A stretch of 64,000 nucleotides of DNA from Candidatus Aldehydirespirator sp. GTDB lineage: Bacteria; Actinomycetota; Acidimicrobiia; Acidimicrobiales; Aldehydirespiratoraceae. The position numbers and the translations under genes were made by a program. This document shows, piece after piece, positions 6,555 to 63,739 of this stretch. The notes under the pieces are model-generated. The model did no database searches. It saw only the letters and a list, made by a program, of their open reading frames with translations, and was not told the DNA's origin. The stretch covers positions 1,867,601-1,931,600 of the forward strand of contig OZ244872.1 in assembly GCA_965221215.1 (NCBI GenBank). The letters run 5' to 3'. The stretch's first letter is position 1; each line of letters opens with the position of its first letter.

Positions 6555-9349
6555 AACAGGGCCTGCTGGGACGGGCCGGCAGCCGCGGCTGCGCCGGTGC
6601 GCAGGTTGGGCCAGGCGGTGATGAGGCCGTTGTAGGCGCCGGCCTCGGCGGCCCAGCCGCGGTCGTTGGCCTTCTGGTACAGCAGGTAGGCAAGCTGACG
6701 AGCCCGATCACCGTTGCCGCCGAGGATGTGCAGGAGTTCGGCCGCCTCAGACTCCGAGCGCTCCAGCCCGGCGGCCAGGTGTTGGGTGGCCTCCCACACG
6801 GTGAACCGGTCGTCATGCACCGGCGACCAGTCGGGATCGAGTTCGCTGCGCTCGTACAGGCGGAACTTGCCGGCCCGGGCCTCGCCGATACCAGATTCCT
6901 CGATGCCGGCCAGGGAGGTGTTCTTGGCTCGGGCCACGCTGTCAGCGTCACCTGAGGGACCGGAGTCGTAGCCATGCTCGGCGAACCAAGTGAGTGCGAA
7001 GCGTGTGTCGGCATCGAGTTCGGCTTCCTCGCCGTCGAGCACTTCACCAAGCACATCGTTGATGATGGCCAGCGCGGCCGACACCGGCATCGACGACCCA
7101 TCGGCCTCCACCACCCGGGCATACCGGGAGAACACCTTGATGCCCGGCCCGATGGTGGACTGTGCCATATCCACCGGAGCAATATTGCCCGACTGCAACA
7201 TCCGCACCGCCTCAGGAAGCTCCTGCCGCAACGCGGCAATGAACTCACCACGCGTAGCTAGAACCGCCGAATCAGGCCGTGGTCGGCAGGCAAGCACGAT
7301 CGAGGACGCGAGAGCGTTGGTGCCTCTGGCGAGAATTCGGCCAGGTGACTCGGTACGCATCGGCCACGTAGCGCAGACCTGCAATCCTGCACCGAAGACA
7401 GCCTGCAAGAACGTGTCCCAACCCGTCGTACGAACCTCTCCATCCTTGGATTCGGTCGCCTTGTACGCGTAGTAGATCGTCGCGGGGACATCTGGTGGCT
7501 GATTCTGCGCAACTTGAGCCATGAACTCCGCCATGCCGGACTCGAAGTGTCGCTCGGCTTCCTCCTTTGAGCCTGCCCGGTGGGTATTCGCAATGAGTTC
7601 TTCAGCTTTGGGAGTCAGCAGTGTCGAGCACTCGTCAGGCCACACGTCCGACAGGTTCCTTCGCAGCCAGACGTAGAAGAAATCCGACAAATCGGCGTAG
7701 GAAATGTTGTCATAGTACGGAGGATCAGTCGCGACGACGCCGCCCGCGGATTCTCGAACGCGCGCACGAGCATCCCGCTGGACAGCTACACCTTGGCGAT
7801 CTTGAGAGCCAGCACATGATGGCAGTTCTGCAATGACCCGCTGAACCTTAGAAAGACAGAGTTCCCAGCTGCCTCCTCGTCCTGAGAAGGGACTTGCTTC
7901 CGCGAAGTCCCATGTCATAGGAATCGCCTGGCGGGCGAACACTTCACGGAAGGCCCCTCGATCATTCATCCATGTGACGACGTTCGACCAGAGATTCGTG
8001 CACTTGTCGATGGTGAACGCCAAGTACGTCACGATTGCATCTGCGTACGCATCGGCACCGCGGCCGCCCTCAAACAATCTCATTCCGTTCGTTGCCAAGC
8101 CAGCAGCCTGCGCATGGGATCGTGCCGACATCTTAACCTGGTGAAGAAGACTTGAGAATTCAGTTAGCGCAGTTAGCTGCCGGGGCGTAAACAGCTTCCA
8201 CCATTCGTCTAGTCCGTAGATGGTAATCCAGATATTGCGAGGATCAAGCGCCACGTCGCTGGTAGGAATCCGGGAAGGCAGACCAGCATCTGCGGCCTCG
8301 ATGTCTTCGTTTGAGGCAGCGCGATACACCTTGCCGTTCGAACTCTCTAGAATGACTGCCATCAACTGATGACGCATGCGCCCAGCAAGGCTCTCCGATT
8401 TGATGTAGCTCCCGGGAATGGCGGCACCCGTCGCAATGCAGGTGCCCTTGCCCCTGTCCACCGTTCTACCGTGGGACGGCTCACCGCCTTCCCGAATCTC
8501 ATAGCTAATCGTCATAGCGTCGCGGTCGATGATCGGCGCGATCCAGACCTTGGGCTTGCCGGGCCGTTTGGCGAGCGTCCACGACGCCACTAGCGGCACA
8601 TGGCCCGACCAGCTCGGGTCCGGCGACTCCACGGTGCGGGCCCAGATCCAGGCGATAGGCGTGAGTTGCTCTCCGTTGGGGCCGGTGGCATCGGGGTACA
8701 GGTGCCCGATGCGCTTGTAGGCCTCATTGCGCATCCACTGTCCATACGCCTCGATGTCGGCAGCGAGTCCCTGGGCCCGCTCCCAGGTGGTGAGGGTCTT
8801 GTCGATGTCGGGATGGACCGGTGGCAGCCCAGCGAAGCGGGGCGGGATCTCAATCGTTGCCTTGTTGATCAGCACCGCCACCGGGTTCAGGTCCCCGGCG
8901 AGCGCAGTGAGTCCGAGTCGCTGCGCCTCCAGCGGTATGGCCCCTCCCCCGGCGAAAGGATCCAAGATCGGCGGAGGCCCATCGGGGAAGCACCGGTCGA
9001 TTTCGGCCCGGGCCTCAGCCAGCACGTCAGCGTTGTTCGAGTTCTCCCACTTGACCAGCCGCTCCAGGATCCCAAACAGCCGCTGCCGCTCAGCATCCAT
9101 CTTCTGCTCACGCTCTGCCTTCTGCTCTTCAGTCTCGTCATCGGGGGTCACGAACTCGTCATAGCCCGAGGGATCATCCACCAGCGATGCCCAGATCACC
9201 GCCCGAGCCGCTGCCAGCGGCCGCCGAGCCCACCACAGATGCAGCGTCGACGGATGCCCATGCCGAATCGACTTCTCCCGCGCCGCCTCAGCATTGATCG
9301 CCGCCAACGGCAAAGCCACCTCGATCAACTTCGGCTTGTAGTCTTTCAC
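6551..9349 (-). CDS. DUF1156-type DNA methyltransferase, probably N6-adenine
   Basis: 932 aa. N-terminus MKDYKPKLIEVALPLAAINAEAAREKSIRHGHPSTLHLWWARRP is characteristic of DUF1156. AdoMet motif LDPFAGGGAIPLEAQRLG, then catalytic VATDPPYYDNISYADLSDFFYVWL. Confidence 0.8.
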   Translation of the reverse strand: MKDYKPKLIEVALPLAAINAEAAREKSIRHGHPSTLHLWWARRPLAAARAVIWASLVDDPSGYDEFVTPDDETEEQKAEREQKMDAERQRLFGILERLVKWENSNNADVLAEARAEIDRCFPDGPPPILDPFAGGGAIPLEAQRLGLTALAGDLNPVAVLINKATIEIPPRFAGLPPVHPDIDKTLTTWERAQGLAADIEAYGQWMRNEAYKRIGHLYPDATGPNGEQLTPIAWIWARTVESPDPSWSGHVPLVASWTLAKRPGKPKVWIAPIIDRDAMTISYEIREGGEPSHGRTVDRGKGTCIATGAAIPGSYIKSESLAGRMRHQLMAVILESSNGKVYRAASNEDIEAADAGLPSRIPTSDVALDPRNIWITIYGLDEWWKLFTPRQLTALTEFSSLLHQVKMSARSHAQAAGLATNGMRLFEGGRGADAYADAIVTYLAFTIDKCTNLWSNVVTWMNDRGAFREVFARQAIPMTWDFAEASPFSGRGGSWELCLSKVQRVIAELPSCAGSQDRQGVAVQRDARARVRESAGGVVATDPPYYDNISYADLSDFFYVWLRRNLSDVWPDECSTLLTPKAEELIANTHRAGSKEEAERHFESGMAEFMAQVAQNQPPDVPATIYYAYKATESKDGEVRTTGWDTFLQAVFGAGLQVCATWPMRTESPGRILARGTNALASSIVLACRPRPDSAVLATRGEFIAALRQELPEAVRMLQSGNIAPVDMAQSTIGPGIKVFSRYARVVEADGSSMPVSAALAIINDVLGEVLDGEEAELDADTRFALTWFAEHGYDSGPSGDADSVARAKNTSLAGIEESGIGEARAGKFRLYERSELDPDWSPVHDDRFTVWEATQHLAAGLERSESEAAELLHILGGNGDRARQLAYLLYQKANDRGWAAEAGAYNGLITAWPNLRTGAAAAAGPSQQALL

Positions 9350-9404
9350 GGATGGTCACGGTACCTGGTACTGACCCGACGGATGCAGATACGGAGGTCC
9401 GCTC

Positions 9405-10550
9405 ATGGCGAACGCTACTCCCCGGGACGCACGTGCCGGATTCGCGATCTACCGTCAGAGGGATGGAGCCATCGAGCTTGATGCCATCAATTCTCGACTA
9501 GAAGAATCCGGTTACGGTCGAATCGCGCAACGCACCCTCACTCACTATCGCAATCTTGTGAAGGCCGGATTCAATCGATACATTTCAATCAACCGCTTCG
9601 ATGTCGCTCGAGCCTCCCGACCCTATGAGAACATGTCCACATTGAGCCGGTATCGATACCACGCTGTCGGCCAAGAGATCATTGTAATCTTCTCGAAGAA
9701 CAGCGAGATACTTGAAGTCCAAGGCCAAATGATCGAGTCGGGCGATGTGGGTGCAGTTCTGACGTTCTCCAACGAGGAGTCTCTTCAAAAACTACGACAG
9801 TATACGCCCCGCCCTGGTGTGTACCTCACTCTACACAAGGTCAATTCACCCACTAGTATCAGCGCAACAGTCATCGAATGCGACCTTGAGAGCAGTCCAG
9901 TTCTTCTTGAAGTCGAGTACACAACGCTTGTCTCCCTAGCTGAGATCGAAGATTCGGTTCCATCGCACAGCGTCTTGGCAGAGTTCACGCTCATTTCTGG
10001 TACCGATGGCCTGGAGGCTATGGATGTCATCGGAAGACGCCTGCACAACTTCTTTGATCTTCTTGAAGGCATGCGCGCGCTGTTGAACGAAGCTGGCCGA
10101 TACTCGGGTGACGATATGTATGCCGCTCCTCCGGTGGTACACGAAATCCGAATTTCTTCACCGGCTGTTTTGCTTCTTCAAGTGTCACATGATCTCATTT
10201 CACTTGTGCCTTGGCCCTTGTTGATCGCGCTGTTTCCGGCGTGGCGCAAGACTTGGTACAAGGGAACTCGAGAGAAACGAGAAGCGAAGTTGGCAGATGT
10301 GGAGCGACAAAAGGCCGAGTTGGAACTGAAAGCAAGGAAGATGGAGACGAGCCTGCACTCTCAAATCGTTGAAAACATGCGTGCCCAAATGCCCGGAGCT
10401 AGTATTCCTGATTCTGTAATAGAACAGATCTGGCTTTCGGCTATTCTTCCATCCTATCGTGCGCTCTCGCGCTCCGACGTTCAAAAAATCATTGTCGAAC
10501 AAGATGACGAAACTGAAGTCTCCAAAGATGGCTCTGACGATGATGGTTGA
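9405..10550 (+). CDS. Hypothetical protein (381 aa) with one predicted TM segment followed by a charged coiled-coil; lower-GC gene
   Basis: ATG is 8 nt after GGAGG. Hydrophobic LISLVPWPLLIALFPAW, then KGTREKREAKLADVERQKAELELKARKME and an acidic tail. No recognisable catalytic motif. GC is visibly lower than the flanks. Confidence 0.6.
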   Translation: MANATPRDARAGFAIYRQRDGAIELDAINSRLEESGYGRIAQRTLTHYRNLVKAGFNRYISINRFDVARASRPYENMSTLSRYRYHAVGQEIIVIFSKNSEILEVQGQMIESGDVGAVLTFSNEESLQKLRQYTPRPGVYLTLHKVNSPTSISATVIECDLESSPVLLEVEYTTLVSLAEIEDSVPSHSVLAEFTLISGTDGLEAMDVIGRRLHNFFDLLEGMRALLNEAGRYSGDDMYAAPPVVHEIRISSPAVLLLQVSHDLISLVPWPLLIALFPAWRKTWYKGTREKREAKLADVERQKAELELKARKMETSLHSQIVENMRAQMPGASIPDSVIEQIWLSAILPSYRALSRSDVQKIIVEQDDETEVSKDGSDDDG

Positions 10551-10568
10551 TGCTGCTGCGCGTGGTTG

Positions 10569-10924
10569 CTAACTTTCATCAGCAAATATTGGCCTGATCT
10601 GTAATTCAAACTTAAGCGATTCGTCGTCATGAACGGACTCGCGTACCGGTTCATCGGGATACACATCCACGGTTCGACCAGTCGCATCCATCCAGTCGAC
10701 GAGAGCGTCGGCCCAGCGGCCTTCCATAAGAGCGTCGCGGATTGCAGCAAGGTGGGTCCCTAGCTGCTTGGGTTCTGTGGAGGCAATCAACTCGAGGGCG
10801 ATTGTCTGGTTGAGGCCCTCCTCGTCCCGTGCGATGAAGACCTCCGGCTCTGTCCCATCTTCGTGGACGACAGCATAGAAGACCCGCTGTAGGCGACGCT
10901 CCCGGTCAACGGATTCATCGCTCA
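10569..10924 (-). CDS. Hypothetical protein (118 aa) immediately downstream of the SPPY methyltransferase
   Basis: Start chosen at MSDESVDRERR.., 5 nt after the stop of the upstream MTase. The longer 156-aa ORF would overlap that gene. No recognisable motif. Confidence 0.45.
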
Positions 10925-10929
10925 TCGTC

Positions 10930-12462
10930 TCACGAGTCGCCTCGGGCGAAGCCAGCGAGCCTCGGGAGGTCGTCGGATGAGAGCATCCGGATGACGTCTC
11001 GCACCGGCTTGTCAGGTCCGATGAGCGTCTGGAGCGCACGGTGCCCGGCGCTGGTCGGCGCGGGCCGATCGGTGGTCAGAAGCACAATCGGAGTGTCCGG
11101 CTCGACCGAATGCAGCACGGCCGCCTTGCCGAGTGCTTTCCAGAGAGTGTCCGTGCGGCGCAACCCGGGACGTTGCGTGACACTGAATGCCCCTGACACA
11201 TCGAAGAACCACTTGCGACCAGACCGGTCTCGAGCCTCAAAGTTGACCTCGACGCCGCAGGGCTTCTTCACCTTCTCTCCAACAACCTCGAAGCCGCACT
11301 GGAGCAGCACCGCTTTGGCCATCACTTGGGCCTTGCGTCCCTCCCGCCCGGCCCTCGCCTGAAAGTCGCCCGGCACGCTGGAATCAGGACGGGTAGCGAC
11401 ATGCGGGGAACTGCCGTTCGACGAGGCCAACGACTCGACGAGGTCCAGGAAGAACTGGCGATCGCTCCTGCGTCTGGTCGACGGCGACGCGGTCACCGAC
11501 CAGCCCACCCCATCGGATCGCTCCTCAAGCCTTTGCCGCTCATCGGCGATACGCCGTTCGGCCAACTCGATGTAGGAGGCGTCGGTGTCGAAGCCGGCGT
11601 AGCGACGGCCGGTGCGGACGGCGGCGACTGCCGTCGTGCCAGCCCCGACGAAAGGGTCGAGGATCAGGTCGCCGCGGTAGGTGTAGAGCTCGATCAGCCG
11701 CTCGGGCAACTCCACGGGAAACGGCGCAGGATGCTCGACGCGCGTAGCCGAAGCCGGGGGTATTTCCCAGACGTCTGTCGTGGCCTCCATGAACTCATCG
11801 ACATAGGCGGAGCCATCCGAGGGCCAGCCTTTCTCGGCGCGCGCGGCGGGTGGCAGCGCCCGGTCGAAGCGGCCCTTGGACGCGATCACCACCCGCTCCG
11901 TGAGGTCTCGCAGCACAGGATTGCCGGGCTGTTGGAAGCTGCCCCACGCGCAGCTGCCAGTGGCGCCCTTGGCCTTCTGCCAGACCACCTCGCCTCGCAG
12001 CAGCAGTCGCAGGCGGTCCTGCAGTATCGCGATCACATCTGCGGACAGGGAGCGATATGGGCGCCGCCCCAGGTTGGCGATGTTCACTGCAATGCGCCCG
12101 CCAGGCTCAAGCTTCCGCACGCACTCCCTGAAGACGTCCTCCAGCATCTTGAGATAGTCGACGTAGCTGGCAGGAACGTGGCCGTGCCCCACGGCCTGCT
12201 CGTACTCCTTGCCCGCGTAATAGGGCGGCGAGGTCACGACGAGAGCAACCGAATCGTCCGCTACATCGCCACACGCGTCCATGTCACGGGCATCGCCCAC
12301 CCAGAGACAGTCAGCGCTCGCATGGGGCTTGATCTCATCATCGTCACAGATCTCTGGAACCGGGAACCGCTCGTAGAACGCCGAAGCGTCGTGAGCCTCC
12401 CGGCGGCTCACGCCGAAGCTCGACGTAGACGTGCCGCGCCTACGGCCGTTCGATGCACTCAC
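10930..12462 (-). CDS. Beta-class N4-cytosine/N6-adenine DNA methyltransferase (SPPY) with a ~190-aa C-terminal extension of unknown function
   Basis: LVVTSPPYYAGKEYE (motif IV) precedes LILDPFVGAGTTAVAAVRTGRRYAGFDTD (motif I), which is the beta order. The C-terminal part (..GVEVNFEARDRSGRKWFFDVSGAFSV..RTDTLWKALGK..) matches no domain I recognise. Confidence 0.8.
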   Translation of the reverse strand: MSASNGRRRGTSTSSFGVSRREAHDASAFYERFPVPEICDDDEIKPHASADCLWVGDARDMDACGDVADDSVALVVTSPPYYAGKEYEQAVGHGHVPASYVDYLKMLEDVFRECVRKLEPGGRIAVNIANLGRRPYRSLSADVIAILQDRLRLLLRGEVVWQKAKGATGSCAWGSFQQPGNPVLRDLTERVVIASKGRFDRALPPAARAEKGWPSDGSAYVDEFMEATTDVWEIPPASATRVEHPAPFPVELPERLIELYTYRGDLILDPFVGAGTTAVAAVRTGRRYAGFDTDASYIELAERRIADERQRLEERSDGVGWSVTASPSTRRRSDRQFFLDLVESLASSNGSSPHVATRPDSSVPGDFQARAGREGRKAQVMAKAVLLQCGFEVVGEKVKKPCGVEVNFEARDRSGRKWFFDVSGAFSVTQRPGLRRTDTLWKALGKAAVLHSVEPDTPIVLLTTDRPAPTSAGHRALQTLIGPDKPVRDVIRMLSSDDLPRLAGFARGDS

Positions 12463-51016: not shown

Positions 51017-51568
51017 TCAAGCCTCAAAATAGGCACGATCTCGAACACCCCGATGAACAGGTCGCAGCGAGCGGCCCACCTTCTCGATGGCATTCGCGAT
51101 GTCACGGGCTTCGGTCGCCGAGATGTCGCCGTTGGCTACAGCCGTTTGGAGGATCTGGATCGAGTCGATCACTCTGCCCGGGCCGAGCGAGGGTCGCCGG
51201 GCAGCAAACTCGTAGGCACCGTTGTCGTCGGTGGCGAACTGTCCCCAGAGCTTCTCGGCGAAGTAGATGCCCTCGGCTTCGCCACGATCCCCCCTTGGCG
51301 GCTCCCGTCCGTCGTTGAGACCCACCTGAAGGCGGTACACGTCACCCATTTCGGCAACGCTTGGCACGGCAGGGTCTCCGAGCCAGGCCGCGGCAAGGAC
51401 GTCGGCACAGTGGCTCTTGCCTGCATGCATGGCTGACTTGATCTCGGCGCGGATTCCCTCTGTCCATCTGGGCTCCGGCCGGTGGCCGTGGCAGTCCCGC
51501 AGCACATCCAGTCGCTGGACAGCCGCGAAGTGGCGAAGCGTGACAGCGTCATGGATCACCGGGTCCAT
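51017..51568 (-). CDS. PIN-like nuclease-domain protein (DUF4411-like), partner of XRE-ImmA
   Basis: 183 aa with acidic positions in PIN order: VIHDAVTLRHF, DRGEAEGIYFA, FATDDNGAYEF. Lies 22 nt downstream of the ImmA gene. Confidence 0.55.
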   Translation of the reverse strand: MDPVIHDAVTLRHFAAVQRLDVLRDCHGHRPEPRWTEGIRAEIKSAMHAGKSHCADVLAAAWLGDPAVPSVAEMGDVYRLQVGLNDGREPPRGDRGEAEGIYFAEKLWGQFATDDNGAYEFAARRPSLGPGRVIDSIQILQTAVANGDISATEARDIANAIEKVGRSLRPVHRGVRDRAYFEA

Positions 51569-51590
51569 GCTCCGATGGTACGAGCCGGTT

Positions 51591-52826
51591 TCAGGCTGCT
51601 ACGGGATCCTCGTCAAATGCCTGGATCGCGATGTCTGGAGGATCCTGAGGGGTCGAGTAGTCGCTATCGATGGCGCTTGCCGCCTCCGGTCCGATGGAGT
51701 TGAGCGCCTCGATCATGTTGTCCACGTCAACGTCGAGTAGCTGCGCCAGGGGCCCAGCCCCGACGGTTCCATCCAACGCGCCTCGCAGACACCGCGCGGC
51801 GAGCAGTGCGGGCGGGCGCCTCTCGGGCCTGGCTCCCCGCGCTGCAAGCAGGCTGCGAGCCATCCCGTCGTCCTCAAGGTGCTCGACCAATCCGGTCCAG
51901 CCGATGCTCCGCAAGCGATCTCGTCCGTGGGCGTTGATGATCTGGAGGTTGTGCAGGCGATAGACGAGCGTCTCGTAGCTGACTTCGAATCTTATAAGCA
52001 TCCGTGCCAGAGACTCCGCCCCGCGACCGTGCTCCTTGATGATTCCGAGAACTTTGGACTCTGGCATCAACAGTGCAGCGGCGAACGCATTGGCCAGCCG
52101 TTCCTCATTGGATCGGGCCCGCAGATCCCGGTCAATGTTGATCATTGCCCCATCGCCGCTGAGTACGTGCCCCAACTCGTGAGCCAGCGTGAACAGAGCC
52201 CGAGATCTGAGCTGGTCGGCGTTCACCAGTATGAACGAGAACTCGACATCGGTGATCGACAAGCCGAGCGGTGAATCCTTGCCTAGGCGCTCGACCATTA
52301 CATCCACGCCCAAGCTGTCCTCAATGGCCGAGGCCAACTCAGTCAGACGATCCTCTCCCTCGGTAGCCGGATCGAGACGATGCAAGGCCCAGTCGGCTAG
52401 AGCGTTGGCGTGTTCCAGCCATCTGGGATCGCGGCTTGGAAGCCCGCCAATTTGGGCAGCGGCAGGATGCCCGCCGTCGCTCAGCACTTGGTGCAGTTCC
52501 GCCAGAGCTGTGATTCGCATCCGAGTGCTCCGGCTACCGCCGTCATCGCCGTTGGTGCGGTGAGCGACCGGAAGCCGCCCCAAGAGCGAGTGGGGCTCGA
52601 GGATGGCCAGTTGTGACACACCCAGGAAGTTCGCGATGGCAGCGAGTTCGGAGGCCTTCACGTTTCGCCGGCCGTGTTCGAGGTTGGACACGGCGCTGGC
52701 GTCTACCCCCAGCGCGTCCGCGAGATCCGCGGCCTTGAGTCCCGCAGCCTCTCTCAGCCGCCGGATCTGGCGACCGATGGACACCTCCACAGCGACAGTA
52801 TGGGCCGCATCTTGTGGAAATCGCAA
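51591..52826 (-). CDS. XRE-family HTH fused to an ImmA/IrrE (COG2856) zinc metallopeptidase
   Basis: HTH IGRQIRRLREAAGLKAADLADALGVDASAVSNLEHGRR; peptidase FTLAHELGHVL; NAFAAALLMPE. Confidence 0.85.
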   Translation of the reverse strand: MRFPQDAAHTVAVEVSIGRQIRRLREAAGLKAADLADALGVDASAVSNLEHGRRNVKASELAAIANFLGVSQLAILEPHSLLGRLPVAHRTNGDDGGSRSTRMRITALAELHQVLSDGGHPAAAQIGGLPSRDPRWLEHANALADWALHRLDPATEGEDRLTELASAIEDSLGVDVMVERLGKDSPLGLSITDVEFSFILVNADQLRSRALFTLAHELGHVLSGDGAMINIDRDLRARSNEERLANAFAAALLMPESKVLGIIKEHGRGAESLARMLIRFEVSYETLVYRLHNLQIINAHGRDRLRSIGWTGLVEHLEDDGMARSLLAARGARPERRPPALLAARCLRGALDGTVGAGPLAQLLDVDVDNMIEALNSIGPEAASAIDSDYSTPQDPPDIAIQAFDEDPVAA

Positions 52827-52909: not shown

Positions 52910-53713
52910 CTAGCGGCTAAGGACGAGGGTGGACCATTCGCCTTCGGTGCGGCGCTCCACTTCCGCCAGAGGGTGCAGGAAGCCCGCGGCCTGAGAGCAC
53001 TGCGACGGCGAGAGGCCCCCGACGGCGAGCCAGCCACCCGGTGCGGTGTGCGACACCAGTTCGTCGGCGAGCGCCGCGACACCCGCTCTGGCGATGTTGG
53101 CCACCACGGCGTCGAAGCGACCCGCGATGTCCGCAAGAGGGGCGAGCGTCGTTTCCAGCTGAGAGCTCACGGCGTTGATGGCCGCGTTGCGCTTCGCTGC
53201 TTGGACCGCCTCATCGGCGATGTCGACCGCCACGACCCGGGCTGCGCCCAGCCGCAGAGCGCACAACCCCAGAATCCCGCTGCCGCAGCCGACGTCGAGC
53301 ACCCGCTCGCCACCGGTGATCCGCTCCAGCAGCACCTCGATCATCTGACGGGTGGTGGGATGGTGGCCGTTGCCAAACCCGCCGAAGCCCAACTCGACCA
53401 GCCCCGGCCGGTCGCGACGATCATGCTCCGACCAGGCCGGACAAACCGTGAGCCGGCCGCCAAAACACACGGGTCGAGTGTCGGCGATCCACCTCGGCAG
53501 CGCCGCGCCGCCCTGAGGCTTCGTCACCGCCACCAGGCCCTCGGCCCGAAGCGACGCCGCCATCCCAGCCGCACCGGTTGCATCGTCAAGTGTCGCCAGC
53601 ACCACCCGCCGAGCGCGGCCGGGCTCCACCACCTCCAGCGAACGCACACCAAGCGCCATGAGCCGCCCAACAACCCCAGCCAAATCGCCAACAGTGGTAG
53701 CCACCACAATCAT
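52910..53713 (-). CDS. Class I SAM-dependent methyltransferase, PrmA-like
   Basis: VLDVGCGSGILGLCALRLGAARVVAVDI; FDAVVANI. Start trimmed to MIVVATT because the first 10 codons of the ORF derive from the adjacent remnant. Confidence 0.65.
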   Translation of the reverse strand: MIVVATTVGDLAGVVGRLMALGVRSLEVVEPGRARRVVLATLDDATGAAGMAASLRAEGLVAVTKPQGGAALPRWIADTRPVCFGGRLTVCPAWSEHDRRDRPGLVELGFGGFGNGHHPTTRQMIEVLLERITGGERVLDVGCGSGILGLCALRLGAARVVAVDIADEAVQAAKRNAAINAVSSQLETTLAPLADIAGRFDAVVANIARAGVAALADELVSHTAPGGWLAVGGLSPSQCSQAAGFLHPLAEVERRTEGEWSTLVLSR

Positions 53714-53720
53714 CACCCCA

Positions 53721-53900
53721 GTGTCGCAGCGCGACAGCCTCATGGATCACCGGACCCACGCTTCGATGGCACAAGCCGGCGAACACACTGGCCAGCCGCT
53801 CCTCATCGGATCGCGCCCGCAGGTCCCGGTCGACGTTGATCGTTGCGCCGTCACCGTTGAGGACGTGCCCCACTCGTGAGCCCGGTTGAACAGAGCTCTG
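53721..53900 (-). pseudogene. Decayed remnant of a second PIN-like/ImmA module
   Basis: 53721..53778 aligns to 51530..51590 (PIN-like 5' end plus spacer). 53779..53900 aligns to 52081..52205 (ImmA interior, HELGHVLNGDGATINVDRDLRARSDEERLA). About 80% identity by eye, with roughly 490 bp missing between the two segments. Confidence 0.7.
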
Positions 53901-53968
53901 GATCCACCAGGCGACAGAGGACCTCCAGGAAGCAGCGTGTCACAGGTGGTGCGTACAGTCCGGGCTCG

Positions 53969-56040
53969 ATGAGCGACGAGTCTGAACTTGCGAATGAGGC
54001 GCTGAGCCTGCTGCGGCGGCTGACCAGTGATCCCGCATCTCAGTTCCGGGCCGACCAACTCGAAGCGATCCTGGCGTTGGCGGGTGATCGGAGCCGGGTG
54101 CTGCTGGTGCAGCGGACGGGCTGGGGCAAGAGCGCGGTGTACTTCATCGCTACCCGGCTGCTGCGCGACCGTGGGCTTGGCCCCACGCTGTTGGTGTCGC
54201 CGCTCCTGGCGCTCATGCGCAACCAGATTGAGGCTGCTGAGCGTCTCGGGGTCAGAGCCGTCACCATCAACAGCTCGAACCGTGACGAGTGGGACGAGGT
54301 CGCAGGGCTGATCGAGGCAAACGCAGTAGATGTGTTGCTGATCTCGCCTGAGCGACTGGCGAACCGGCAGTTCCGCTCCCAGGTGCTGCCCATCGTCGGT
54401 CGGCGGAGCGGACTACTCGTGATCGATGAGGCCCACTGCATCTCTGACTGGGGCCATGACTTCAGGCCCGATTATCGGCGGCTGGCACGGGTGCTCGATC
54501 TGCTGCCAACCGGCGTGCCAGTGCTGTGCTGTACCGCCACTGCCAATGATCGTGTGGTGGATGACGTGACTGCCCAACTCGGAGCCGACTTCGTGCCAGT
54601 GAGGGGCACTCTTGCTCGCCGCGGCCTGCGACTCCACGCGCTGGACAAGCCGATTCAGGCGGAACGGCTGGTGTGGCTCGCCGCCGCCATCAACGATCTG
54701 CCCGGCACCGGCATCGTCTATTGCCTCACGGTCGCGGACGCCGAGCGGGTCTCAAGCTGGCTCCAGACGCAGGGCATTTCTGCGGTTGCCTACAGCGGTG
54801 ATAGCGACGACGACCACCGGCGCGCTGTCGAACAGGATTTGCTCGACAACAACGTGAAGGCTGTGGTGGCTACATCGGCTCTGGGTATGGGATTCGACAA
54901 GCCTGACCTTACGTTCGTGATCCACTACCAGTCACCGGGTTCGCCGGTGGCCTACTACCAGCAGGTCGGCCGCGCCGGACGGGGCCTCGCCGAATCATGG
55001 GGGATTCTGCTGCGGGGCACCGAGGACGCCGACATCCAGGACTACTTCATTGAGTCGGCATTCCCGCAGGCTGCTCTGGCTGAACGTGTCGTGGACCGCC
55101 TCGAGGGCACCGCCGTTTCCATGACGACGCGGGAGATCCTCGCGGAAGTGAACGTGAGGCCGGGCCGACTGGAGAACCTTCTCAAGATCCTCGAAGTGGA
55201 GGGGCGGTGGAGCGTGAGGGCCGAGGGTGGCTGCGGACGCTCCAGCCGTGGACGTTCGATACCGAGCGAGTCGCTTCGGTCACCGCGCTACGCCGGGCCG
55301 AGCAAGAGCAGATGCGCAGGTACATCACCACCGACCAATGCCGGATGCAACTGTTGCGCGGCTACCTCGACGACCACGATCCCGCACCGTGCGGGATCTG
55401 CGACAACTGCACCGGCGAGAGCATGGATCGGGCCTTCGATCCGGCCGTCGTACAGCAGGCCGTCGAATTCCTGCGCAAGTCCGAGCGGGTCATCGAGCCG
55501 CGCAAGCAGCTTCCGGACGGAAAGCGGACCGCGTTGGATGAGAGGCTTGAGGAGGGGCGCGCCCTGGCCATGTGGGGAGATGGCGGCTGGGGCCGGCTGG
55601 TGCGTAGCGGCAAACAACAAGATGGACGGTTCGACGACCAACTCGTTAGGGCGGCACGCGATCTGATCCGCGGTCGCTGGCGACCCGAGTCCGAGCCGGA
55701 GTGGGTGGCGTTCGTGCCCTCGCTGCGTCACCCCGAACTCGTGTCGGACTTCGCTCATCGGCTGGCGCAGGCGCTCGGGCTGGACTGCCTAGATGCCGTC
55801 GTCAAGGTCAGCGATACCAAGCCGCAGAAGACGATGCAGAACAGCCAACAGCAGTATCGCAATGTTGTGGACGCGTTCGAGATCAGCGGTGAAGTACCGT
55901 CGGGTTCAGTGCTGCTCGTAGACGACATGGTCGACTCGCGCTGGACGCTCACCGTTGTGGGCTCGCTGCTGCGTGAAGCAGGAGCCGGCCCGGTGTTCCC
56001 GTTCGCCTTGGCGGACACGGGCGGGAGGTCAGGCGCTTGA
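53969..56040 (+). pseudogene. RecQ-family helicase fused to a C-terminal ComF-like phosphoribosyltransferase domain; frameshifted
   Basis: QRTGWGKSAVYF, VIDEAHCISDWGHDFRPDY, TATAN, SALGMGFDKPD, YYQQVGRAGR. The frame breaks after ..KILEVEG at the G-run 55201..55204 and resumes in the +1 frame (EREGRGWLRT..CGICDNC..VLLVDDMVDSRWT). Confidence 0.75.
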
Positions 56041-57038
56041 GGCACGACGACTCGCTGGCCACGATCTTGCTCGTAAGCCGCCTCTGCACCGACGGGGTGC
56101 GACCGCTCAAGGCGTCAGAATACTGGAGCCTGCGCGATTGCAACCGCGCTGATGGGCGGCAACAGGCGGGCCCGGGATCGCTGCTTGGACGGGGCGCGGA
56201 TCAACTCGTGCGCGATCACGGTCTGCCCGAGGATCTTGGCGAGCGCATTGCTGAGCTCATGGACCGTGCCACGGCGGTTGCCTTCGAATTGGACCGACTG
56301 GAGCAGTCAGGCATCAAGACACTCACGGCGTTCGATCAGCACTACCCGCGTGCGTGGCTTGAGAGGCTCCGTGCCAAGGCACCGCCGCTGGTGCACGCCG
56401 CCGGCGCGCTCGAACTGCTCGATGCGCCCGGGCTGGGTGTGGTCGGCAGCCGCGACGTGTCCCAAGCAGGGGGCGAGGTGGCCATAGAGGTTGCTCGGCT
56501 CGCAGCATGTCGGGGCCTGCCGCTCACGTCGGGCGGCGCCTGCGGCGTCGACCAACTTGCCATGAATGCCGCCTTCGAGTCTGGCGGAGCCGTCGTCGGC
56601 ATGCTGGCCGAAGCGCTGTCGCGCAAGTTGAAGAGCCCCGACGTGCGAAGGGCCGTGTACGAGGGCAGCACGGTCATGTGCACGCCCTACAGTCCCAGTG
56701 CCCCCTTCAGCGCGGGCAACGCCATGGGTCGCAACAAGCTCATCTATGCGCAGGCTGCGCTCACGGTGGTTGTAGCGAGCGACGATGGGACTGGGGGTAC
56801 ATGGTCGGGCGCCGTCGAAGCCCTCAAGCACGGCTACGGGCCGGTCGCCGTGTGGCGAGGCGACGGGGAAGGTCCTGGCAACGATCCCCTTCAGCAGCGA
56901 GGCGCCCTGCCTGTGTCCAGCCTCGAAGACGTCGAGGCACTTCTTGAGGCCACCCAAGCACCATCAGCGGAATCGCCCCAGTCGCCGACGAGCACTGCCG
57001 AACAGCAGCCGCTGTTCGTCACGATGTCGCCCCTGTAG
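56037..57038 (+). CDS. DprA/Smf-like (SLOG-fold) protein
   Basis: GVVGSRDVSQAGGEVA..LTSGGACGVDQLAMNAA..GNAMGRNKLIYAQA..VVVASDDGTGGTWSGAVEAL. TTG start overlaps the RecQ-PRTase stop (TTGA). Confidence 0.75.
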   Translation: MRHDDSLATILLVSRLCTDGVRPLKASEYWSLRDCNRADGRQQAGPGSLLGRGADQLVRDHGLPEDLGERIAELMDRATAVAFELDRLEQSGIKTLTAFDQHYPRAWLERLRAKAPPLVHAAGALELLDAPGLGVVGSRDVSQAGGEVAIEVARLAACRGLPLTSGGACGVDQLAMNAAFESGGAVVGMLAEALSRKLKSPDVRRAVYEGSTVMCTPYSPSAPFSAGNAMGRNKLIYAQAALTVVVASDDGTGGTWSGAVEALKHGYGPVAVWRGDGEGPGNDPLQQRGALPVSSLEDVEALLEATQAPSAESPQSPTSTAEQQPLFVTMSPL

Positions 57039-57086
57039 TGCTGGGCCACGAGTGGGTCGGCGTCGCGTCGGCGACCTCACTGCTGG

Positions 57087-57524
57087 CTACTCGCGGTGGT
57101 GGGACTCTATGTTTGAGTCGAGGGTGTGGTAGTCGGCGGCGTCGTCTACGAAGATGGCCCACTCGGTGTGCAGGCCGGTGGGCAGGTCCATGGTGCCAGC
57201 GCAGATGGCAATGTGGTCGGTCTGGCGAGGTAGACCCTCCGCTACCTGCCAGAACAGTGAGCTTCCGCATTCTCGGCAGAAGCCGTAGGCCACGTTGGGA
57301 TCGTCGGCGGGGTGATGCCAGGCCAGGCTGGCATCGGACAGGAGCCTGAGGTCGGAGCGCTTGCATCCCGATCCAGCCATGTAGTGGCCGGTCCAGCGGC
57401 GGCAGCGCCAGCAATGGCAGTTCCAGACCTGGCGGATCGGGCCGTGCACCTCGTAGCTGACCGCGCCGCACAGGCAGTGGCCCGAGGGCGGCGAGTCTGG
57501 CTCCAACCGGGGGTTCTCGCTCAC
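57087..57524 (-). CDS. GFA/CENP-V family zinc-binding protein
   Basis: CLCGAVSYEV..WNCHCWRCRR..FCRECGSSLF. Confidence 0.8.
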   Translation of the reverse strand: MSENPRLEPDSPPSGHCLCGAVSYEVHGPIRQVWNCHCWRCRRWTGHYMAGSGCKRSDLRLLSDASLAWHHPADDPNVAYGFCRECGSSLFWQVAEGLPRQTDHIAICAGTMDLPTGLHTEWAIFVDDAADYHTLDSNIESHHRE

Positions 57525-63085: not shown

Positions 63086-63739
63086 ATGACTGCGCCTGTC
63101 AACCTCCCACCGACCATCGCCAACTCCGAGGTGATCACGCTGATCCCGTGGCTCGACCAGCGCGTCGACGCCTTCGGCCACGATCCGAGATCGACCTACG
63201 TCGAGCAGTTCTGGCTGGCCACGCTGGGACCGGCCACCACCTGGTTCCTGCGCCATTGCGCCGATCTGCTCGACGAGGTGGCCAGCACGGCCGTCAACCT
63301 GCGGGAGACGGCCAGCGCCCTCGGAATCGGCCACGAGGGCGGCGCCCGCAGCGCCATGGCCCGCACGGTGGGCCGAGCCTGCCGGTTCCGGGCGGCCCGG
63401 TCGGTGGGATCAAACACCCTGGCCGTCCGCCTCCGGCTGCCCCAGCTCAGCCGCCGCCAGCTGAATCGACTGCCCAAGCCGGTGCAGCGACGCCACACCG
63501 AGTTCCTGGAGAACTATCTGTGCCCGGACATCGTGGTTCGACAGCAGCCGCGGGCCCGGCGGCTGGCCTCGGGGCTGATCGAGTGCGGCGACACCATCAG
63601 CGAGGCCGAGCGGCAGCTGGCCGGCATGGAGTTCCATCCCGCCGTGATCGCCGAAGCGGTGCAGTGGGCCTGGTGCCTGCACCACGGCCCGACCCTGGAC
63701 TCGGCAATGCCTGCTGAGAGCGAGCCCAACTTGGTGTGA
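63086..63739 (+). CDS. Hypothetical protein (217 aa)
   Basis: ORF trimmed to the ATG at 63086. No motif recognised. Confidence 0.45.
   Translation: MTAPVNLPPTIANSEVITLIPWLDQRVDAFGHDPRSTYVEQFWLATLGPATTWFLRHCADLLDEVASTAVNLRETASALGIGHEGGARSAMARTVGRACRFRAARSVGSNTLAVRLRLPQLSRRQLNRLPKPVQRRHTEFLENYLCPDIVVRQQPRARRLASGLIECGDTISEAERQLAGMEFHPAVIAEAVQWAWCLHHGPTLDSAMPAESEPNLV

Follow-up and report, generated by a model that had tools for sequence, protein, structure and literature searches.

Two co-oriented genes lie at positions 53969 to 57038 of the window, the stretch of 64,000 nucleotides that was analysed here, whose host replicon is an Acidimicrobiia chromosome. [quoted passage not shown] The features of the locus are as follows:

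53969..55204, + strand: 5' part of rqlH/psyrT (aa 1-412), RecQ-like SF2 ATPase core and most of the RqlH-specific linker (Pfam, PADLOC PsyrT)
54050-54565, + strand: Pfam DEAD match in rqlH (E 4.6e-22)
54119-54133, + strand: Walker A motif GWGKS, aa 51-55 (sequence)
54425-54436, + strand: DEAH motif, aa 153-156 (sequence)
54701-54982, + strand: Pfam Helicase_C match in rqlH (E 1.5e-16)
55201-55204, + strand: frameshift site, GGGG, one base fewer than in all homologues (homologue alignment)
55207..56040, + strand: 3' part of rqlH/psyrT in the -1 frame (aa 414-690 of the repaired protein), zinc module and ComF/PurF-like PRTase (Pfam, PADLOC, fold)
55291-55413, + strand: Pfam RecQ_Zn_bind match (31 bits, cut-off 25)
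55339-55410, + strand: cysteine cluster of the zinc module (sequence)
55489-56016, + strand: confidently modelled PRTase fold (AF2 pLDDT 75-97, residues 95-270 of the modelled 3' part)
55909-55938, + strand: PRPP loop VLLVDDMVDS, aa 648-657 (sequence)
56023..56028, + strand: Shine-Dalgarno-like GGGAGG, 8 nt upstream of the TTG start of rqlI (sequence)
56037..57038, + strand: rqlI/psyrA, DprA-like (SLOG Rossmann) putative antitoxin of 333 aa, short form (Pfam, PADLOC)
57076..57103, + strand: terminator-like hairpin just 3' of rqlI (consensus match only; shuffled sequence yields such hairpins no less often)

Adding a single G at the frameshift site restores an uninterrupted RqlH of 690 amino acids (window 53969..56040), numbered from the ATG at 53969, a start that agrees with 690-residue homologues. 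The repaired protein aligns along its full length (100%) with intact 690-amino-acid proteins at 90% identity, is 53-55% identical to homologues from Mycobacterium MAGs, and shares 49% identity, across 97% of its residues, with the RqlH encoded by an E. coli IncF plasmid. Its Pfam helicase domains span residues 28-338, its best sequence matches in the PDB are RecQ cores (E 3.5e-52), and it scores 238 bits against the NCBIfam family model recQ_fam (TIGR00614), above the cut-off of 219.8. The NCBIfam equivalog model for RecQ itself (TIGR01389) gave 280 bits, under its cut-off of 640, and Pfam returned no HRDC or RQC domain at E<0.01. Helicase_C ends at residue 338 and RecQ_Zn_bind begins at residue 442, leaving a spacer of ~100 residues; the zinc module that follows has the arrangement C458-x16-C475-x2-C478-x2-C481, with CGICDNC at 55390-55410. 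A scan upstream of rqlH found no sigma-70-like promoter, a result that is uninformative for this phylum.

The C-terminal region scored 26.0 bits against Pfam Pribosyltran, marginally under the cut-off of 26.3, and gave a weak match to GntX in NCBIfam (E 1.7e-4). Comparison of a family profile with the PDB matched the PRPP loops of PRPP synthetase and HGPRT (E about 1e-6), and a Foldseek search with the AF2 model had PurF, H. pylori ComF (7p0h) and ShosT (8zvd) near the top of its hits. Since the Pfam match is marginal, it is on the basis of the family profile and the fold search that we predict the C-terminus to be a type I PRTase fold. With an SF2 ATPase, the characteristic linker spacing, a Cys4 zinc module, a PRTase-like C-terminus and no HRDC domain, the repaired protein is, as judged from its sequence, a probable member of the RqlH clade.

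The TTG start of rqlI overlaps the TGA stop of rqlH by 4 nt (TTGA, 56037-56040). Its product carries the motifs GSRD (aa 137), SGGACGVD (aa 165) and GRNK (aa 231), and matches Pfam DNA_processg_A (E 4e-28 over aa 88-266), SLOG LDcluster4 (E 5e-7) and the S. pneumoniae DprA structure 3uqz (E 8e-9). Canonical DprA models were matched at scores under their cut-offs (73 bits against 191 for TIGR00732; 58 against 495 for PRK10736). RqlI is 33% identical to the PsyrA of the E. coli plasmid and is a short form: it ends at residue 333 in a low-complexity tail and has no counterpart to the last ~90 positions of the PsyrA model, where E. coli RqlI has its HTH region. Querying a phage collection with RqlI retrieved no PsyrA-type copy, only distant DprA-like phage proteins (24-34% identity), and Rfam gave no match on 50-58 kb. 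A preliminary description of this DNA had proposed a RecQ core with a CxxCDNC zinc motif, a ComF-like PRTase at its C-terminus, a DprA/SLOG partner overlapping it by TTGA and a frameshift in the helicase gene, and each of these proposals is borne out by the evidence above.

It had also suggested a PADLOC search. The PADLOC PsyrT model (689 positions) was matched at positions 6-409 by the 5' piece of rqlH (E 4e-175, 582 bits) and at positions 411-685 by the 3' piece (E 4e-90, 301 bits), so that the two pieces span the model from end to end. The downstream protein matched the PsyrA model (E 4e-79, 264.6 bits, positions 6-310 of 398). These matches fall on neighbouring genes of one orientation, rqlH first and rqlI second, an order common to 47 related loci. 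We read the locus, with a probability of about 0.92 and by analogy with characterised members of the family, as a chromosomal copy of RqlH–RqlI (PsyrTA), a two-gene toxin–antitoxin and putative abortive-infection system, in an Acidimicrobiia host. This family assignment holds whether the frameshift is a mutation or a sequencing error.

An uninterrupted toxin frame is expected of a PsyrTA system; the window copy as sequenced has a 1-nt deletion in a G-run. Every aligned homologue (~30) reads GAG GGN GCG GTG at this site, and the run of the closest intact homologue is GGGGG, one G longer than the GGGG of the window. The product as sequenced would comprise 412 native residues followed by 153 out-of-frame residues (565 in all), with a stop at 55664-55666; because it lacks the zinc module and the PRTase, it is predicted to have neither helicase activity nor toxicity. 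The 277-residue C-terminal open reading frame from GTG 55207 is likewise expected to be inactive, since in E. coli the PRTase domain is not toxic by itself. In a GC3-based scan of the window for other frameshifts, overlapping open frames were common, the window having 68% GC.

Whether this represents a very recent real inactivation or a homopolymer sequencing error stands at roughly even odds. The case that the missing G is a sequencing or assembly error, and that the cell makes an intact, functional 690-residue RqlH, comes close to an even bet: the deletion sits in a homopolymer, no further stop or frameshift interrupts rqlH, and all catalytic motifs are present. Moreover, in a comparison with 119 homologues the repaired protein departs from the family at 0 of the columns with >=97% conservation, against a median of 1 and a maximum of 12 such departures in the others, so the window copy gives no sign of long-term decay. 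Against an error, the other flanking genes that were compared with relatives are intact, inactivation of rqlH is frequent in the lineage, and the nearest relative (L001, RqlI 95% identical) inactivated rqlH independently through a 1.2-kb deletion corresponding to window 54792-55996. Programmed -1 ribosomal slippage on G GGG C, yielding low, regulated amounts of full-length RqlH, is hardly credible. Re-pairing of a P-site tRNA-Gly following a -1 slip on GAGGGGC is conceivable and would give the same protein as the repair, but the site has no canonical X XXY YYZ heptamer and the G-run is too short for transcriptional slippage; we reject programmed frameshifting because the shift occurs in 0 of the roughly 30 homologues aligned here, all of which are in frame.

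A census seeded with RqlI yielded 79 loci (73 assessable species and 6 that were not assessable), and revealed an intact RqlH at 47 of them, fragments, frameshifts or nonsense mutations at 15 and no RqlH at 11. RqlI is intact in nearly all 79 loci, and about 25 of the 73 species retain it beside a decayed or missing RqlH, the deletions, truncations and frameshifts having arisen in independent events. Its dN/dS of 0.12-0.32 indicates purifying selection, also where RqlH is gone. Universal conservation as a housekeeping operon, the outcome that the preliminary description had set against its own proposal, is thus not what related species display, about a third of them lacking RqlH or carrying a decayed one.

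The pair lies in a variable segment of ~6 kb (50.9-57.05 kb), bounded on one side by a PfkB kinase gene and on the other by GFA, GMC-oxidoreductase and PLP-enzyme genes. At the same site, relatives carry HigB with a PD-Lambda-2_B-like gene, RES-Xre, PhdYeFM-PIN, PemK or a Dcm methylase, and in a more distant relative type I restriction–modification genes adjoin the pair. The preliminary description had suspected a conflict role in an accessory context, which the PADLOC assignment and these toxin–antitoxin and restriction–modification neighbours support. Twelve full-length RqlH homologues are found on plasmids from Cyanobacteria, Proteobacteria, Actinomycetota and haloarchaea; on the E. coli IncF plasmid the partner of RqlH is a full-length PsyrA (577 bits), and the E. 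coli pair sits within a type I hsd operon. In most comparisons the dS of RqlI and RqlH (0.8-1.0) exceeds that of flanking genes (0.25-0.6). Across one genus the pair occupies a single chromosomal site next to GFA-GMC-OAHS, which also resembles vertical inheritance. A neighbouring open reading frame of 183 aa (51017..51568) has an orthologue with only a weak precomputed match to DUF3368 (PIN-like); it had no match in Pfam (E up to 10), PADLOC or NCBIfam, and BLASTP found no similarity between it and the 183-aa partner of the RmrA-like gene of the E. coli plasmid.

PsyrTA is reportedly a toxin–antitoxin system, an account credited to Sberro in 2013. [quoted passage not shown] E. coli RqlI can neutralise without its HTH region, as a 1-320 truncation rescues (PMC4670107). 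Phage defence by PsyrTA was reported in 2022 (Millman et al., preprint 10.1101/2022.05.11.491447), and the theme of a PRTase as toxin recurs in ShosTA (PMC11961720, PMC12961424). One study in a native E. coli host detected no protection by PsyrTA against the phages tried, so the defence role is not universal. By analogy with E. coli, the unrestrained PRTase of the window's RqlH would be toxic and RqlI bound to it would neutralise it. During phage infection a DNA-level or protein-level cue is assumed to free the PRTase, which, like the related ShosT, may then act on DNA or nucleotide metabolism and would thereby halt replication of both cell and phage.

Comparison with characterised relatives shows how closely the window pair follows this pattern. 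It shares with RqlHI of extraintestinal pathogenic E. coli (Russell & Mulvey 2015, PMC4670107) the gene order, the stop/start overlap and the RqlH architecture of RecQ-like ATPase, linker, Cys4 zinc module and PRTase; the acidic motif of the PRPP loop is conserved as well, DDMVDS in the window and DDIVDS in E. coli, with D653-D656 (DMVD) aligning with E. coli DIVD660-663. In contrast, E. coli RqlI has 400-462 residues and a C-terminal HTH while the window RqlI has 333 and none, and the Acidimicrobiia host and the frameshifted toxin gene are likewise features of the window. The M. smegmatis RqlH (MSMEG_5935; Ordonez, Unciuleac & Shuman 2012) is alike in length (691 vs 690 aa), domain order and spacing, and like the window protein it lacks HRDC and ends in a ComF/GPATase-like domain. 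Its ATPase spans residues 1-346 and its zinc domain 435-499; ATPase, linker and zinc domain (residues 1-505) form the motor of a 3'-5' ssDNA translocase/helicase (PMC3378886). The M. smegmatis protein is, however, reportedly solitary (PMC4670107), whereas the window RqlH is translationally coupled to a DprA-like partner. Solitary RqlH proteins of other actinomycetes (Arthrobacter, Tsukamurella) also differ from the window pair in lying among core genes. Together, the housekeeping-looking contexts of solitary RqlH in M. smegmatis, Arthrobacter and Tsukamurella are in keeping with a role in repair for at least some family members.

ShosTA shares the logic of the window pair, a PRPP-binding PRTase toxin with a DprA-fold antitoxin, although ShosT fuses its PRTase to a pyrophosphatase-like hydrolase and RqlH to a helicase; ShosT structures gave a TM-score of 0.41 normalised to the query. 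Membership in ShosTA was rejected, as ShosT was matched at E 0.002 only and the PADLOC ShosA model gave RqlI 74 bits, far under the 265 of PsyrA. DpdF is the RecQ-like helicase of the Dpd 7-deazaguanine DNA-modification/restriction system. It ranked second among PADLOC families for the window helicase core, at 299 bits, and the C-terminus too is matched by some of its sub-models; this candidate was also rejected, since 299 bits lie far under the 582 and 301 of PsyrT and the NCBIfam DpdF model gave 146 bits against a cut-off of 550. No dpd genes were identified among the annotated neighbours.

Could the pair instead be a housekeeping recombination or repair operon, in which a RecQ substitute and a DprA-like RecA loader are inherited vertically in Acidimicrobiales with no conflict function? 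We consider this improbable. RqlH has genuine 3'-5' helicase activity and classical RecQ is missing from the mycobacteria that possess RqlH (PMC3378886), the pair keeps its GFA-GMC-OAHS-adjacent site across a genus, solitary RqlH adjoins core genes in Arthrobacter and Tsukamurella, and RqlI is under purifying selection even without RqlH. A housekeeping function sits poorly, however, with the decay or absence of RqlH in about a third of related species, with toxin–antitoxin and restriction–modification neighbours, with plasmid copies across phyla and an E. coli pair inside an hsd operon, and with the toxicity and phage defence that experiments have revealed in E. coli and cloned systems of the family.

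A machine for competence or DNA uptake, the counterpart of ComFA/ComFC/DprA and acting on incoming ssDNA, is more improbable still. In its favour, the PRTase fold is of ComF type (H. pylori ComF 7p0h, E 2.6e-4, besides the weak GntX match), the helicase belongs to SF2, the partner has a DprA fold, and the parallel has been drawn explicitly in the literature, in the Discussion of a 2015 study (PMC4670107) and again in 2017 (PMC5512222). Yet the window helicase is RecQ-like and not of the ComFA kind, and it is fused to its PRTase; competence genes are absent from the segment and its flanks; and the partner is by score PsyrA and not canonical DprA. The preliminary description had three functions cooperating on incoming ssDNA, a picture that published genetics replaces with antagonism, a toxic PRTase restrained by a DprA-like binder, with no transformation phenotype (PMC4670107). 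Nor is the fused analogue new: the helicase–PRTase fusion has defined the RqlH clade since 2012 (PMC3378886). The architecture, toxin–antitoxin behaviour, defence role and competence analogy of RqlHI are all already in print.

As a discovery, then, the RqlH–RqlI pair is of little value, as PADLOC would tag it automatically, and with respect to the PRTase substrate and the infection trigger the window is no more tractable than the E. coli system. What the census adds is that the paired form is widespread in an Actinomycetota class, against an early survey, and that the toxin has been lost repeatedly while the antitoxin was kept. It is possible, although less likely than not, that the short, HTH-less RqlI of Acidimicrobiia has a function of its own, either as an orphan antitoxin that would immunise the cell when elements carrying RqlH enter it or as a DprA-like ssDNA/RecA mediator. 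If true, this would revise the picture of 2015, in which Gram-positives were represented almost only by genomes with RqlH alone and RqlI-only genomes were confined to Gram-negatives (PMC4670107). The RqlH-less genomes of Acidimicrobiia provide a natural data set on the role of RqlI without RqlH.

The G+C content of the window ranges from 64 to 73%, and three long open reading frames occupy its 53.9–57.0 kb region:

53876..55666, plus strand: first part of a split rqlH, the RecQ-like helicase–phosphoribosyltransferase (PRTase) toxin gene
55207..56040, plus strand: second part of rqlH, in another frame
56037..57038, plus strand: rqlI, the DprA-like antitoxin gene

The first two are a single gene. 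Its frame switches at a GGGG run (55201–55204), where ~30 aligned homologous genes read GAG GGN GCG GTG (E-G-A-V) and the closest intact homologue has GGGGG. Putting back one G yields a 690-residue RqlH that begins at the ATG at 53969, the start given in a preliminary description of the locus, and shares 90% identity along its full length with intact 690-residue proteins in public data. Repaired RqlH carries GWGKS (residues 51–55), DEAH (153–156), a RecQ-spaced Cys4 cluster (C458, C475, C478, C481) and the PRPP-type loop VLLVDDMVDS (648–657); RqlI carries GSRD, SGGACGVD and GRNK. The rqlI start is a TTG, preceded 8 nt upstream by GGGAGG, within a TTGA that also holds the rqlH stop codon. All motifs quoted in the preliminary description were found in the two proteins, and the TTGA overlap and frameshift it reported are both seen in the sequence.

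The locus is a new acidimicrobial member of the already known RqlH–RqlI (PsyrTA) system; its RqlI is short and its toxin gene is disrupted. Pfam matches DEAD, Helicase_C and RecQ_Zn_bind in RqlH, with Pribosyltran at 26.0 bits, slightly below its 26.3 cut-off, and DNA_processg_A and a SLOG family in RqlI. PADLOC, a check already proposed for this locus, labelled the pair PsyrT and PsyrA: the RqlH pieces cover positions 6–409 (E 4e-175) and 411–685 (E 4e-90) of the 689-position PsyrT model, and RqlI matches PsyrA at E 4e-79 (265 bits; related ShosA, 74 bits). NCBIfam places the helicase inside the RecQ family, yet far under the RecQ equivalog cut-off, and RqlI falls far under that for DprA. Searching the PDB with a C-terminal-domain profile built from 15 diverse homologues retrieved the PRPP loops of PRPP synthetases and HGPRTs (E ~1e-6); no solved RqlH/PsyrT structure beyond the RecQ core was found there. 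For the last 277 residues of RqlH, AlphaFold2 gave a model that was confident in its PRTase part (pLDDT 75–97) and whose best structural matches were PurF, H. pylori ComF (7p0h), APRT, PyrR and the toxin ShosT.

The RqlH clade was defined on M. smegmatis MSMEG_5935 (Ordonez, Unciuleac and Shuman, 2012; PMC3378886), a 691-residue protein with a RecQ-like ATPase (1–346), a 90-residue spacer, a Cys4 zinc domain (435–499), no HRDC domain and a ComF/GPATase-like C-terminus, whose residues 1–505 have 3'-5' translocase and helicase activity. E. coli RqlH is genotoxic when the downstream DprA-like RqlI is missing (Russell and Mulvey, 2015; PMC4670107); toxicity requires the PRPP loop, the PRTase is held back by both helicase activity and RqlI, the two proteins interact, and the HTH tail of RqlI is dispensable. 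The pair was identified as the PsyrTA toxin–antitoxin by Sberro et al. (2013) and placed among phage-defence systems by Millman et al. (2022; 10.1101/2022.05.11.491447), who noted that a DprA-like antitoxin and a PRTase toxin are common to PsyrTA and ShosTA; ShosT binds PRPP, and its toxicity depends on that binding (PMC11961720, PMC12961424). One native-host study of PsyrTA saw no protection. The preliminary description had read the locus as a fused analogue of the ComFA/ComFC/DprA trio. The architecture is real; its novelty does not hold, since both the architecture, published since 2012, and the parallel, drawn outright in the 2015 Discussion (PMC4670107) and restated by Iyer et al. (2017; PMC5512222), belong to the known RqlH/PsyrTA family. 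Published work also shows the parts as antagonists, not as cooperating partners.

Model systems show a helicase motor, PRTase-dependent genotoxicity, physical neutralization by RqlI, and defence in heterologous assays. From the strong homology and conserved catalytic residues, we infer that the window pair would behave likewise: K54 and D153 of its RqlH correspond to K49 and D148 of published mutants, and D653–D656 to D660–D663 of E. coli RqlH.

As sequenced, rqlH would encode 412 native residues and then 153 out-of-frame ones, a product without the zinc domain and PRTase. The odds that this frameshift is a real mutation, as opposed to a sequencing error or very recent event, are near even. 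Loss of RqlH has a precedent in the window's nearest relative, L001 (RqlI 95% identical), which independently lost window 54792–55996: there, 9079–9972 is joined to 9961–11614, a 1.2-kb deletion that takes nearly all of RqlH after about residue 275, zinc and PRTase domains included, and leaves RqlI intact. RqlH remnants or absence also recur among 79 species-representative loci, which again favours a real mutation. Pointing towards error or recency, the missing base falls within a homopolymer, no second lesion was found in rqlH, and repaired RqlH keeps the conserved residue at every alignment column with conservation of 97% or more in 119 homologues, a set of columns at which other members depart up to 12 times (median 1).

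The closest genomes are MAGs from the class Acidimicrobiia and belong to the Candidatus Aldehydirespirator group. Metabolic genes flank the locus upstream (Band_7 protein, cyclase, PfkB kinase) and downstream (GFA, GMC oxidoreductase, α/β-hydrolase, Cys/Met PLP enzyme, Sir2), and the segment between them, at 50.9–57.05 kb, is variable. Upstream of rqlH it holds:

51017..51568, minus strand: 183-residue partner of the HTH–M78 gene, 22 nt downstream of it
51591..52826, minus strand: fused XRE-HTH–M78 (ImmA/IrrE) peptidase, 411 residues; PADLOC matches to RmrA (Rosmer antitoxin, E 5e-20) and capP/capH
52910..53743, minus strand: PrmA-like SAM methyltransferase; Pfam PrmA E 1e-40, PADLOC mad2 E 3.5e-20
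53720..53904, minus strand: decayed second copy of the HTH–M78 module, directly upstream of rqlH

Profile searches found no family match for the 183-residue protein; it has PIN-like motifs (an N-terminal D, GEAE and TDD), and an orthologue matches DUF3368 weakly. Together with the peptidase gene it probably forms a Rosmer-like toxin–antitoxin pair. The PrmA-like gene scores under every NCBIfam PrmA equivalog cut-off and, among the loci examined, occurs only in the window and L001. The decayed copy joins a 129-bp piece with 84% identity to 52079–52207 (M78 gene, HExxH region) to a 60-bp piece with 83% identity to 51529–51588 (the start of the 183-residue gene), with ~490 bp absent between them; its position suggests that the module was ancestrally divergent from rqlH. 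Further downstream, ARAGORN called a 100-nt tRNA-Ala with anticodon AGC (63164..63263, minus strand), unusual for a bacterial tRNA-Ala in length and anticodon.

Within one genus the pair occupies the same site beside GFA–GMC–OAHS, and the surrounding content varies. The HTH–M78 module changes place, lying downstream of rqlI in six relatives (L003, L005–L009). In L029/L080 and L031, the HTH–M78 gene stands alone upstream of rqlH, divergent from it at a distance of 100–160 bp. Gene calls with Pfam found the pair surrounded by genes of toxin–antitoxin and restriction–modification systems: a Dcm methylase, the divergent HTH–M78 gene, RES–Xre, PhdYeFM–PIN, PemK and a second DprA-like gene in the relative L080; HigB and a PD-Lambda-2_B-like gene in the relative L081; and RHH–PemK, HsdM, a Dcm methylase and HsdR in L082, from the more distant Candidatus Poriferisodalis, whose flanks are unlike the window's. 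The second DprA-like/SLOG gene of L080 (16692–17840, 382 residues) lies in the same island, 3.5 kb downstream of rqlHI, with the RES–Xre, PhdYeFM–PIN and PemK modules in between.

Twelve full-length RqlH homologues are plasmid-borne (Nostoc, E. coli, Sinorhizobium, Acinetobacter, actinomycetes, haloarchaea), which is evidence of mobility. On an E. coli IncFIA/IncFIC conjugative plasmid (NZ_OX030731.1, 624–12731) the order is RmrA-like HTH–M78 (380 residues), 183-residue hypothetical, HTH gene, hsdM, hsdS, rqlH, DprA-like gene (PsyrA, 577 bits), hsdR. The pair thus separates hsdS from hsdR within a type I restriction–modification operon and, as in the window, lies near an HTH–M78 gene with a 183-residue partner; no sequence similarity was detected between the two partners. 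On Halanaeroarchaeum plasmid pHSR2-01 (4935–7016), a full-length homologue (47% identity) adjoins an IS200/IS605 transposase and has no DprA-like partner at the locus. Solitary RqlH in Arthrobacter and Tsukamurella sits among core metabolic and secretion genes, in agreement with the 2015 survey of Gram-positives (PMC4670107).

Among the 79 loci, a census seeded with RqlI, RqlH is intact in 47, absent from 11 and not assessable in 6; in the other 15 it is fragmented, frameshifted or interrupted by nonsense codons, though one of these is probably intact. The RqlI reading frame is intact in nearly all. For rqlI, ω was 0.12–0.23 between the window and L001, L002 and L003 (without intact RqlH) and L004, L005, L029 and L031, and 0.16–0.32 among RqlH-less lineages; RqlI is therefore under purifying selection. 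Its dS was 0.8–1.06 between the window and the L003–L031 genomes, and the 5' part of rqlH gave 0.65–0.80 with L004, L005 and L031 and a lower 0.37 with L029; for the same genome pairs, dS of the flanking genes (GMC, OAHS, hydrolase) was 0.21–0.64. The higher values of rqlI and rqlH in most comparisons suggest exchange at the locus, and are consistent with allele exchange or faster evolution of the pair. The 2015 survey found RqlI-only genomes confined to Gram-negatives (PMC4670107), in contrast to the RqlI-only loci of this acidimicrobial lineage. The retention of RqlI without RqlH across the lineage, as seen in RqlI-seeded loci, is the sole mildly new point.
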